IMG/VR virus record: IMGVR_UViG_3300025861_000004
Direction: 5' to 3' (one strand)
DNA length: 64,000 nucleotides
Origin: a virus
Lineage: Duplodnaviria > Heunggongvirae > Uroviricota > Caudoviricetes
In this document: in pieces, positions 46,054 through 47,141 of the stretch
Position numbering within the stretch: the first letter of the stretch is position 1
How the letters are laid out: each line of letters begins with the position of its first letter
Program-made: the position numbers and the translations under genes
The notes under the pieces: generated by a model
Seen by the model: the letters and a program-made list of their open reading frames with translations, nothing else
Told to the model about the DNA's origin: nothing
Databases searched by the model: none

Positions 46054-46269
46054 GTGGGCCCCCTTCTGTACCTACACTTCCGAGGGGGGTTGTACCTCAA
46101 CGTCCTCCGTATGGAGGAGTACACGCCGTCGCACACACATGGCCGCCTCTACGGGATGCGTGAGGTGGGCTGCCGCGACGGGTGGGACGACCTCAGCGAG
46201 GAGGAGATCACGCAGTTTCGCGAGCTTCACCGAGAAGCGAGGGTGGGATCCACGGCCACTAGGGCCTGA
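46054..46269 (+). CDS. hypothetical small protein
   Basis: 71-aa ORF. The start is uncertain (GTG at 46054 or ATG at 46114). Confidence 0.3.
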   Translation: MGPLLYLHFRGGLYLNVLRMEEYTPSHTHGRLYGMREVGCRDGWDDLSEEEITQFRELHREARVGSTATRA

Positions 46270-47141
46270 AGGATGGCGCGGGTCATCGACCCCGCCAGGT
46301 CCATCGAGAGGGCGTCGGTCGGCGCGACCCACATGGCGGCCTCGTGCTCTGGGGAGGGGAAGGCGCGAAGCTCCCCTCCCTCGATGACTCCGTGGACCGC
46401 GTGGACGTCGAACCAACCCGTACGGTAGGCCCCCGCGTAGGAGCGGAACCGCACCTCCAGCCCTGTCTCCTCGCGCACCTCGCGACGCAGCGCGTCCGGT
46501 AGGGACTCCCCCTCTTCGACCTGCCCGCCCGGCAGCGAGAGGCCGGGCATGTTGCGGTCGTGCAGGTAGCGTCGGAGCAGCAGGACCTTCCCCTCGTCGT
46601 CTCGCAGCACTACGACGCCGGCCGGCACGATGCCGTCGGGACAGAGCGCGCCGCGCAGGAGGTCGGTGGGGTCGCGGAGCGCAGCGGGCTGCGCCTCGCC
46701 GGGTCGCCACCAGACCGCCGCTCGCGTGCCCGTGGCGTAGAGCTCCAGGTGGAGCATGGAGGCTGGGTTGGGGTACGACTTGCCCGGCCGCTCCCGCAGC
46801 ACCTGACGGACTACGCCGACAGGGTCTCCGGCCAGCAGGTGGTCTCCCACCTTGACGGCCGCCTCGACCTCGCCGTAGAGCACCACACCGCTCGCCCCTT
46901 CCACCAACACGGCAGCGGTCTGGTTCCACCAGGGAGACTCAGCCCCTCCGGTGAAGCATAGGTCGATGGCGACGACCACACCGTCCTCCACAGCCACTAC
47001 TAGCTGGTCCACAGGGGCGTAGAGGTCTACTCCGGTGTGAACGTCGTGCGTCCGAACGGCCCCGAACGCACCTTGGCCGTTTGGTAGGATGGGGTAACGA
47101 TCGGCGAGAGGCCAGCACCAGGTCATGCCCTCTAGTACCAT
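46227..47141 (-). CDS. M23 (LytM-like) peptidase domain / NUDIX hydrolase fusion protein
   Basis: N-terminus: HTGVDLYAPVDQLVVAVEDGVVVAI...GVVLYGEVEAAVKVGDHLLAGDPVGVV...SMLHLELY, M23-like. C-terminus: GVVVLRDDEGKVLLLRRYLHDRNMPGLSLPGGQVEEGESLPDALRREVREETGLEV, a Nudix box (GG.VE.GES...RE..EETG). ATG at 47141 (MVLEGMTWCW). The ORF track extends it to 47249. Confidence 0.6.
   Translation of the reverse strand: MVLEGMTWCWPLADRYPILPNGQGAFGAVRTHDVHTGVDLYAPVDQLVVAVEDGVVVAIDLCFTGGAESPWWNQTAAVLVEGASGVVLYGEVEAAVKVGDHLLAGDPVGVVRQVLRERPGKSYPNPASMLHLELYATGTRAAVWWRPGEAQPAALRDPTDLLRGALCPDGIVPAGVVVLRDDEGKVLLLRRYLHDRNMPGLSLPGGQVEEGESLPDALRREVREETGLEVRFRSYAGAYRTGWFDVHAVHGVIEGGELRAFPSPEHEAAMWVAPTDALSMDLAGSMTRAILQALVAVDPTLASR

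Follow-up and report, generated by a model that had tools for sequence, protein, structure and literature searches.

A fusion of an M23/LytM-like domain with a Nudix hydrolase in a putative jumbo phage, and the genomic association of its M23-like clade with nucleotide-cofactor enzymes

In the literature, the M23/LytM fold is regarded as one of cell-wall hydrolases, from which a few inactive regulators have been derived. M23 enzymes carry an Hx3D and an HxH motif; the first His of HxH activates water and the second binds zinc, and a further His about 30 residues upstream of HxH (His260 in LytM) is also water-activating (PMC9662197). Nudix domains, for their part, occur in phage NAD metabolism: NAD-reconstitution pathways are known from phages (bioRxiv 10.1101/2024.02.11.579819), and NatV of phage KVP40 is an enzyme–Nudix fusion (PMC13464706). 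Here, we describe a gene in which an M23-like domain and a Nudix hydrolase are joined in one polypeptide. It lies at positions 46227–47141 on the minus strand of a 64,000-nucleotide stretch (hereafter the window) of the IMG/VR virus record IMGVR_UViG_3300025861_000004. Its M23-like half belongs to a clade, here termed M23L, which was defined in this analysis and corresponds to no published family. The features of the gene are as follows.

46227–47141, minus strand: open reading frame (ORF) of the M23L–Nudix fusion, 304 aa from ATG 47141, stop codon at 46227–46229
46647–47126, minus strand: M23L domain, residues 6–165, delimited by Pfam PF01551, profile comparison with the PDB, AF2/Foldseek and the family alignment
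47025–47054, minus strand: motif R30-x4-H35-T-G-V-D39, in which H35 and D39 correspond to the two zinc ligands in the Hx3D of M23 enzymes
46869–46877, minus strand: Y89-G90-E91, with E91 at the position of a water-activating His (LytM His260)
46743–46757, minus strand: M129-L130-H131-L132-E133, replacing HxHxE
46251–46628, minus strand: Nudix domain, residues 172–297, minimal and MutT/NudG-like
46458–46526, minus strand: Nudix box G-x5-E-x7-R-E-U-x-E-E-x-G-U, residues 206–228, GQVEEGESLPDALRREVREETGL, with every consensus position present

The interval 46227–47249 on the minus strand is one open frame without an internal stop in the six-frame ORF list, and the motifs quoted in the initial annotation (HTGVDL, GVVLYGEV, KVGDHLLAGDPVGVV, SMLHLELY and GGQVEEGESLPDALRREVREETGL) were all found in the 304-aa translation. 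ATG 47126 (MTWCWPL...; 299 aa) is likelier than ATG 47141 to be the start codon, since a Shine-Dalgarno-like AGAGGG lies 4 nt upstream of it and WxWPL is where the homologues start. Beginning with a GTG at V44, the JGI gene call (P0001; 261 aa, 46227–47012) cuts off the HxGxD motif and is too short; because the gene was started at this internal codon, the JGI annotation records a NUDIX domain only and the M23-like half is hidden. Fewer than ten residues separate the last M23L motif, DPTDLL, from the first Nudix strand. An identical 304-aa product (P0386) is recorded in NCBI, JGI, Logan and ENA on three contigs, the largest of 273,402 bp. Both domains are present in P0003, P0004 and P0006 (57–59% identity, 94–95% coverage), and the two-domain architecture is kept in relatives at 48–60% identity, whereas others have the two domains the other way round. 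AlphaFold2 modelled the full-length protein with confidence (pLDDT 92.6, pTM 0.88). Pfam, profile and model thus agree with the initial proposal of a single-gene fusion of an M23/LytM-fold domain with a Nudix hydrolase carrying a clean Nudix box. The artefact that had been allowed for, namely two neighbouring genes read as one through misassembly, a frameshift or an unnoticed stop, draws on the shorter product given by one gene caller (JGI); it was rejected because of the uninterrupted frame, the short linker, the same product in several independent sources and contigs, and the same architecture in the relatives, and together with the confident two-domain model these observations leave it a negligible probability.

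Residues 34–139 barely pass the Pfam-A gathering score of Peptidase_M23 (PF01551; E = 8.8e-7, 29.5 bits against 28.7); most M23L homologues also pass it. In PHROGs, the N-terminal half matches M23-type families named "endolysin" or "metallo-endopeptidase". A profile built from 53 homologues of the N-domain matched zoocin A (E = 4e-6), StM23, LysTt72, LECT2, lysostaphin and LytM in the PDB. The AlphaFold model of residues 1–170 reached a pLDDT of 91.9, and its top Foldseek matches in the PDB were M23/LytM structures only, at a probability of 1.00, with StM23, DipM, LECT2, LytM, lysostaphin, Csd, ShyA and EnvC as matches. Because the profile comparison and the fold search support it independently of the marginal single-sequence Pfam score, the predicted M23 fold of this half is considered sound, which answers the check suggested in the initial annotation in favour of M23.

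In the HMM alignments, H35 and D39 fall on the HxGxD of zoocin A and StM23, YGE is aligned against the YAH or YGH of zoocin A, StM23 and LysTt72, and MLHLE is aligned with the HLHLE of LysTt72, such that the first (catalytic) His corresponds to Met129 and the second (zinc-ligand) His to H131. Neither the canonical HxH motif, of which the zinc-ligand His alone remains in M129-L130-H131, nor the additional catalytic His about 30 residues before it, where E91 stands, is present in the protein. The earlier observation of only one His in the HxH position is therefore correct, and the residue in question is the second His of the motif. As judged from the alignments, all three zinc ligands (H35, D39 and H131) are kept and both water-activating His are replaced, by Glu91 and Met129; R30 is a candidate oxyanion-stabilising residue.

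The same arrangement defines the clade. The M23L signature reads WxWPL ... FGxxR-x4-HxGxD ... SPWW ... YGE ... MLHxE ... P..L.DP, and the protein studied here carries every element of it. Further motifs in the family alignment are the WxWPL at the N-terminus, FTG...SPWW, a basic loop VL-x-x-DKGRP before MLHLE, and WW...P..L.DPT at the C-terminus. Across 267 domain instances, the conserved columns count R 264, H 264, D 264, Y-G-E 264–265, M 265, H 266 and E 261; R30, H35 and D39 are invariant in 264/264 instances, and E91 is Glu in 265/266. By these columns, the replacement of His is clade-wide and not the erosion of a single lineage.

Searched against 1.84 billion cluster representatives, the M23L profile gave 2894 matches at E<1e-3 and 542 at E<1e-30, the latter being representatives of 50% identity clusters. 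The commonest form is a standalone protein of 160–180 aa. GenBank phages with M23L comprise 19 records, each of at least 173 kb, and include XacN1, Stenotrophomonas phages CM1 and RAS14, the PA5oct group, Milchi, Astolliot and uncultured phages of 485–735 kb. In IMG/VR, M23L was confirmed on 89 contigs, of which 80 were kept, many of them 200–600 kb long. A motif-seeded scan of 185,579 species genomes yielded 47 loci, mostly in metagenome-assembled genomes (MAGs) of Alphaproteobacteria, Bdellovibrionota/Micavibrio, Patescibacteria and Myxococcota. M23L is thus common in jumbo phages and also occurs in MAGs of the candidate phyla radiation (CPR), predatory bacteria and myxobacteria. No conserved neighbour of any informative value flanked the standalone homologues of a Parcubacteria MAG, a 547-kb contig and a Deltaproteobacteria MAG. 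No strongly hydrophobic 19-residue window was found in 254 M23L family proteins, and the clade apparently has no export signal and is predicted to be cytoplasmic.

The partners of M23L form a restricted set of recurrent types beside many that occur once. Among 105 representatives of at least 225 aa, Pfam detected NUDIX in 14, Flavoprotein (CoaC type) in seven, DFP (CoaB) in two and DUF3268 in one. Clustering of 122 terminal extensions from 265 family proteins gave 18 Nudix, 11 flavoprotein, five X-C (the C-terminal domain encoded by gene X, the next gene upstream of the fusion gene in the window), five of another uncharacterised domain, and 66 singletons. The Nudix extension sits either N- or C-terminal to M23L. 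One Bdellovibrionota MAG encodes a 667-aa Flavoprotein-DFP-M23L (CoaC-CoaB-M23L) polypeptide, which scores 184.5 bits against the NCBIfam coaBC_dfp cutoff of 219.7. In 182 non-redundant loci, pooled from the viral, genomic and metagenomic scans, the genes within 3 kb of M23L encode CoaB-like proteins in 50, CoaC-like flavoproteins in 28 (17 of them fused), Nudix proteins in 10 and X-C in eight. Chance adjacency for a single-copy gene is estimated at a fraction of a percent, and the linkage of M23L to Nudix, CoaC/CoaB and X-C is non-random. At one locus (L123), a Nudix gene, an HTH-CoaB-like-Aldolase_II gene and M23L lie in a row on one strand; in the 735-kb phage LR756501, a flavoprotein-M23L fusion is directly followed by CoaB; the M23L and X-C genes abut in XacN1 (ORF423/ORF422), CM1 and RAS14, and an X-C gene adjoins M23L at the loci L022, L046, L104 and L124. 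Many of the CoaB-like partners are divergent, score below the NCBIfam cutoffs, and are fused to Aldolase_II and helix-turn-helix (HTH) domains.

A protein of 435–504 aa is encoded directly upstream of M23L in MAGs of Alphaproteobacteria and Bdellovibrionales and in some phages (L113–L136; L123 891–2405; L015 7226–8533). In it, a divergent CoaB-like domain is joined to a class II aldolase/adducin domain and in some cases also to an N-terminal XRE-type HTH, and we know of no described pathway for such a protein. Two domain assignments among the extensions were rejected: the P0189-type N-terminal extension (5 clusters) as a divergent CoaB reached an hhalign probability of 4.5%, and the ThyX-like appearance of the P0178 N-terminus found no Pfam support at E≤1e-3.

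Both folds are known. The initial statement that no such domain pairing was known holds for the literature, in which searches on M23 with Nudix, on CoaBC in phages and on cytoplasmic M23 turned up no account of the pairing, the M23L clade or its CoaBC/X-C link; it does not hold for metagenomes, in which the pairing recurs, as the 14 of 105 long representatives and 18 of 122 extensions attest. No full-length counterpart of the fusion was found in BFVD.

Given its fold, the protein could be a peptidoglycan hydrolase, an endolysin or an ejection lysin, that has gained a Nudix domain, as was suggested at first. The fold and the zinc ligands are those of M23 peptidoglycan hydrolases, PHROGs offers "endolysin" families, databases label M23L homologues as M23 peptidases or murein hydrolases, and phage endolysins need no signal peptide (PMC9662197). 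However, the catalytic His are replaced family-wide, no hydrophobic segment occurs in the 254 proteins, and in XacN1 and PA5oct the M23L gene lies among small non-structural genes, outside the lysis and structural modules. The PA5oct homologue, gp441, was annotated as a murein hydrolase by bioinformatics only and was undetected in the virion proteome, and a separate protein is the endolysin candidate of that phage. The recurrent partners (CoaC, CoaB, Nudix and X-C) are cytoplasmic, and the CoaBC fusions in bacterial MAGs make an extracytoplasmic substrate implausible. We therefore regard a lysin as highly improbable.

The C-terminal half is predicted, from sequence and model alike, to be a complete MutT-type Nudix pyrophosphohydrolase. 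NUDIX (PF00293) covers residues 174–281 (Pfam-A; E = 1.6e-20, 73.9 bits against a cutoff of 21.1), and PHROGs assigns this half to MutT/NUDIX hydrolase. In the full-length model, the Nudix half was matched by Foldseek to MutT1, BdRppH, NudG/ORF135 and MutT2, with target-normalised TM-scores of up to 0.83 (MutT2, NudG and RppH structures); its PDB sequence matches include 2rrk, and its nearest standalone relatives are MutT-like proteins of 128–170 aa. All NCBIfam scores were below the equivalog cutoffs: NudG 50.3 bits (cutoff 156), NudC 39.5 (158) and MutT 34.6 (97.9), with the NudC-type NAD diphosphatase matched at E = 4e-10. Scores so far under the cutoffs do not allow a particular substrate to be named. 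The ADP-ribose (ADPR) and NAD-derived signals named as substrates in the initial annotation are possible, but the sequence favours small MutT/NudG-type (d)NTP pyrophosphohydrolases as the closest relatives.

A CoA-specific Nudix of the NudL/Nudt7 type was considered and rejected. The CoA-Nudix signature, which we take to be PROSITE PS01293, [LM]-[LIVMF]-T-x-R-[SA]-x3-[RK]-x3-G-x3-F-P-G-G, directly before the Nudix box, could not be recognised by eye: VLLLRRYLHDRNMPGLSLPGG fits at Arg −14 and PGG only, with the spacing off by one residue. The NudL model was not among the best 25 of the 27 NCBIfam matches of this half. PADLOC returned a generic Nudix candidate (PDC-S07) only, and nothing for X, the CoaB-like protein or the RNA ligase encoded nearby. 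Of 19 M23L–Nudix fusions, 16 have an intact Nudix box. In two relatives at 48–50% identity (P0007 and P0008; L012), the box is degenerate, with RLLSEH for REUXEE, and the M23L signature is intact; in P0003, one Glu of the box is Gln.

We propose, with a probability of roughly 0.4, that the fusion protein is a cytoplasmic bifunctional metallo-hydrolase acting on a phosphorylated, nucleotide-linked small molecule in cofactor or nucleotide salvage. M23L would be an active zinc amidohydrolase, in which E91 takes the general-base role of the lost His residues and R30 stabilises the oxyanion. Because the basic DKGRP loop is conserved, M23L may act on a small molecule that is anionic or phosphorylated, and not on peptidoglycan. 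The two halves would act consecutively on one nucleotide-linked metabolite, the Nudix cutting a pyrophosphate and M23L a C–N (amide or amidine) bond in one of the products, and during infection this would serve to salvage or remodel the host's pools of nucleotide cofactors. In one scheme that would be coherent chemically, the Nudix frees a 4'-phosphopantetheine derivative, M23L removes its cysteamine end, and CoaB and CoaC rebuild it. A substrate of the CoA/4'-phosphopantetheine type has the broadest genomic support for the M23L family as a whole; a substrate derived from (d)NTPs or from NAD/ADPR is just as possible for the Nudix subtype found here. Salvage would also be in keeping with the nicotinate phosphoribosyltransferase (NAPRTase; L011) and APRT-like (L146) genes that precede orthologous fusion genes and with the NAPRTase encoded in the window.

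For M23L in general, it is a tentative and rather less probable suggestion that the clade is an unrecognised cytoplasmic enzyme family, using zinc and a Glu general base at a nucleotide-cofactor step and deployed by jumbo phages, CPR and predatory bacteria for the salvage or rewiring of the host's cofactor pools. Its reaction would most plausibly be a C–N hydrolysis coupled to CoaB/CoaC, for example in the exchange or repair of the 4'-phosphopantetheine cysteamine end; an unorthodox replacement for the step after CoaC or a phosphoribosyltransferase is less likely. The chance that the fusion represents a novel cytoplasmic family of enzymes with the M23 fold is a realistic one.

Several observations weigh against the proposed bifunctional hydrolase. 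Both His treated as catalytic in the M23 literature are missing, and for this reason the catalysis by M23L is something we infer. The extensions fused to M23L are very diverse, more than half of the 122 being singletons, which also fits a binding or regulatory module. Nudix, CoaBC and X-C are often found as alternatives and not side by side, and no single pathway explains them all. The Nudix half resembles small (d)NTPases and not CoA- or ADPR-specific Nudix hydrolases; since it is MutT/NudG-like and carries no CoA-Nudix signature recognisable by eye, its substrate may well be of the NAD/ADPR or (d)CTP type. The adjacencies to NAPRTase and APRT genes are single observations, an opposite-strand gene (47201–47683) lies between X and the fusion gene, the element was not found in IMG/VR, and the window showed no virion hallmark gene.

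A degenerate, non-catalytic M23 had been envisaged in the initial annotation, and M23L may instead be a ligand-binding, regulatory or targeting module that carries zinc or a zinc-bound ligand and governs the activity or the location of the attached enzyme, here the Nudix hydrolase. The loss of both water-activating His, the promiscuous fusion at either terminus, the occurrence of the partners as alternatives, and the degenerate Nudix boxes of P0007 and P0008 beside an intact M23L, which indicate that the halves need not both be catalytic, are consistent with such a role. So are the non-enzymatic precedents on this fold: EnvC, NlpD and DipM are regulators (PMC9662197), and LECT2 is among the top structural matches. 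Nevertheless, the residues aligned with zinc ligands (H35, D39 and H131) and the Glu and Arg at catalytic positions (E91 and R30) are kept in essentially all instances from phages and bacteria (264–266 of 267), conservation that is typical of active sites, and the commonest form of M23L stands alone. Degenerate LytM factors are defined by the loss of catalytic motifs and/or zinc (PMC9662197); because the zinc-ligand residues are kept in M23L, "degenerate" is not the best description of it. A non-catalytic module is the main alternative, but an unlikely one.

The best NCBIfam and PDB matches of the Nudix half, the pyrimidine (d)NTP diphosphatases NudG/ORF135 and MutT2, also suggest a route through pyrimidines, in which a NudG-like (d)CTP pyrophosphatase is joined to a zinc/Glu deaminase-like M23L that acts on the resulting (d)CMP. 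Phages possess dCTPase and dCMP-deaminase routes to dTTP that would provide an analogy, zinc together with Glu is the chemistry of hydrolytic deaminases, and CoaB, the commonest M23L partner, uses CTP in bacteria and releases CMP. However, the NudG score is far below its equivalog cutoff (50 bits against 156), we know of no deaminase on the M23 fold, and the 182 loci contain no neighbourhood signal of thymidylate synthase or dNMP kinase. Pyrimidine processing is thus very unlikely, if marginally less so than a lysin.

Four genes of the window bear on the context of the bifunctional hydrolase proposed above.

47908–48852, minus strand: gene X, next gene upstream of the fusion gene on the same strand; its C-terminal domain X-C spans residues 131–288 (window positions 47989–48462)
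47201–47683, plus strand: small divergent gene, 160 aa with a signal-peptide-like N-terminus (JGI call and ORF list)
45255–45956, minus strand: RNA ligase family gene (PF09414; Pfam E = 4.4e-20), directly downstream of the fusion gene on the same strand
28616–30025, plus strand: NAPRTase-family gene, nearest to nicotinate phosphoribosyltransferase, 17 kb from the fusion gene (Pfam; NCBIfam PRK12484, 289 bits against a cutoff of 330)

Gene X is a probable functional partner of the fusion gene. Its X-C domain matches phrog_21276, a family of unknown function (E = 2.8e-50), and shares 52% identity with the X-C extension found in the M23L protein P0143. X gave no match in Pfam, NCBIfam or the PDB, even with a 42-sequence profile at E≤10. 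Proteins of the X family are about 290 aa long and common in Myxococcota chromosomes and jumbo phages, and their N-terminal half is named GNAT by some sources. The invariant residues of X-C are R147, S148, H155, H179, Q183, D185, E214, Y215, R216, D249, K250, Q252, N253 and D256. The family motifs read R-S...H-x-D/N-E-G...L-H-P..Q.D...E-Y-R...D-K-x-Q-N-x-K-D-F, and in Corallococcus, the X gene comes after a HIT-like gene (L094). Because the opposite-strand gene lies between them, X and the fusion gene are neighbours and do not form one operon; a 200-aa ORF at 47081–47683 on the plus strand, overlapping that gene, has a GC3 of 0.79. The RNA ligase gene and an RNase H gene, likewise downstream of the fusion gene, were rejected as recurrent M23L partners, as both are absent next to M23L at other loci.

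The NAPRTase gene offers a possible but weak link to the fusion gene. The window enzyme scores best with nicotinate, not nicotinamide, phosphoribosyltransferase models, just below their cutoffs. At one locus (L011), a 54%-identical orthologue lies directly upstream (40 bp) of an orthologous fusion gene, with a NADAR+DSPc gene nearby, and at another (L146), an orthologous fusion gene comes after an APRT-like phosphoribosyltransferase gene. These arrangements are compatible with a recycling of NAD debris, in which the Nudix is a pyrophosphatase of ADP-ribose (or of NAD/NADH) and M23L a nicotinamidase- or NMN-deamidase-like amidase, together feeding nicotinate or NaMN to the phage NAPRTase and countering NAD-depleting defences. 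The preference for nicotinate models would imply that nicotinamide needs prior deamidation, a NudC-type NAD diphosphatase is among the NCBIfam matches of the Nudix half, and the known phage NAD-reconstitution pathways and the enzyme–Nudix fusion NatV provide precedents. However, the adjacency to NAPRTase was seen once, no NAPRTase gene occurs near M23L in the 80 viral loci, and the two genes are 17 kb apart in the window; moreover, the Nudix half is closest to (d)NTPases, and the far more frequent CoaB/CoaC and X-C partners would be left unexplained. Such a recycling is decidedly unlikely.

The element measures 278,354 bp in the source assembly and about 273 kb in others, has a GC content of 66%, and is densely packed with small genes without a Pfam match. 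From its size, GC content, small-gene density, tRNA and tmRNA genes, and the jumbo-phage distribution of M23L and X-C, we infer that it is a jumbo phage of a myxobacterium-like host. A 464-aa ORF of the window has no phage homologue, and the contig was not returned when IMG/VR was searched for exact matches. The tmRNA gene lies at 56024–56382 on the plus strand and specifies the tag ANDNSVRLAA; a tRNA-Ile(AAT) gene lies at 7896–7971 on the minus strand.

Other parts of the window deserve mention in their own right. A 210-bp tandem repeat at 14450–15860 (6.7 copies, 94% matches) occupies its only low-GC, strongly skewed stretch (GC 0.55 at 14001–16000 against about 0.66 elsewhere); a repetitive protein, iterons or an origin, or an RNA array are candidate explanations. 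The C-terminal 36 residues of the protein encoded at 20849–21733 (minus strand) form a Cys-rich tail, WDCxxSPTGxCVYD..DDxCLYCxxPDERK, which is also found in the M23L protein P0124 (65% over 40 aa); the window protein is otherwise unrelated to P0124, and the tail may be a portable zinc-ribbon-like tag. Genes for a DDE transposase with a SWIM finger (41144–42487, plus strand), a protein with a TnsA-like endonuclease domain (10396–11238, minus strand) and a GmrSD_N-domain protein (52924–53559, plus strand) are of mobile-element and defence type. At 30371–32998 (plus strand), a gene for an NfeD-like membrane protein is followed by one for a 651-aa SPFH/Band 7 protein, as is typical of NfeD-stomatin operons in bacteria.

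M23L comprises at least several hundred sequence clusters in which the zinc-site residues are kept, the catalytic residues are rewired and export signals are lacking. If M23L is an enzyme, a well-studied fold gains a new reaction, and labels such as "murein hydrolase" or "endolysin" on PA5oct gp441 and XacN1 ORF423 are misleading, which matters for the mining of phage lysins. It would also point to a cofactor- or nucleotide-salvage module that jumbo phages have in common with parasitic or predatory bacteria and that may matter for metabolite-depleting defences. The cultured phages XacN1, CM1, RAS14 and PA5oct carry the genes, so the question is directly testable.

Compared with the M23B endopeptidases (LytM, lysostaphin, zoocin A, StM23 and phage LysTt72), M23L shares the fold, the FGxR...Hx3D, the second His of HxH and the Glu that follows it. 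It differs in having, invariantly, Met for the first His of HxH and Glu at the LytM His260 position; in the additional motifs WxWPL, SPWW, the basic DKGRP loop and WW...P..L.DPT; and in its lack of an export signal and its partnership with cytoplasmic metabolic enzymes. The degenerate or non-enzymatic M23 folds (EnvC, NlpD, DipM, Csd2 and SpoIIQ, and vertebrate LECT2) resemble M23L in missing canonical catalytic residues and are among its structural matches, whereas none of them is fused to nucleotide enzymes. LECT2, which we take to keep its zinc, to have lost a catalytic His and to have no known activity, has no equivalent of the invariant Glu in the YGE of M23L. The small MutT/NudG/RppH Nudix hydrolases share the complete box and the minimal fold of about 130 aa with the C-terminal half and provide its best sequence and structure matches, whereas this half scores below every equivalog cutoff and is covalently joined to M23L.

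KVP40 NatV, a NadM-Nudix protein of phage NAD salvage (NARP2), is likewise a two-domain phage protein with an N-terminal enzyme and a C-terminal Nudix (PMC13464706), and at L011, a pyridine phosphoribosyltransferase gene immediately precedes the fusion gene. In contrast to the NMNAT fold of NatV, the N-domain of the fusion has the M23 fold and no match to nucleotidyltransferase profiles, and the phosphoribosyltransferase of the window is closest to the nicotinate enzyme and not to Nampt. NARP3 was rejected as a related system, as the paper describes an unrelated PnuC/NadR system. With respect to CoaBC (Dfp; phosphopantothenoylcysteine synthetase/decarboxylase), no CoaB or CoaC gene was found in the window, and we know of no role for an M23-like domain in CoA metabolism; across the clade, however, CoaC- and CoaB-type domains are the commonest partners of M23L and join it in a single CoaC-CoaB-M23L polypeptide.

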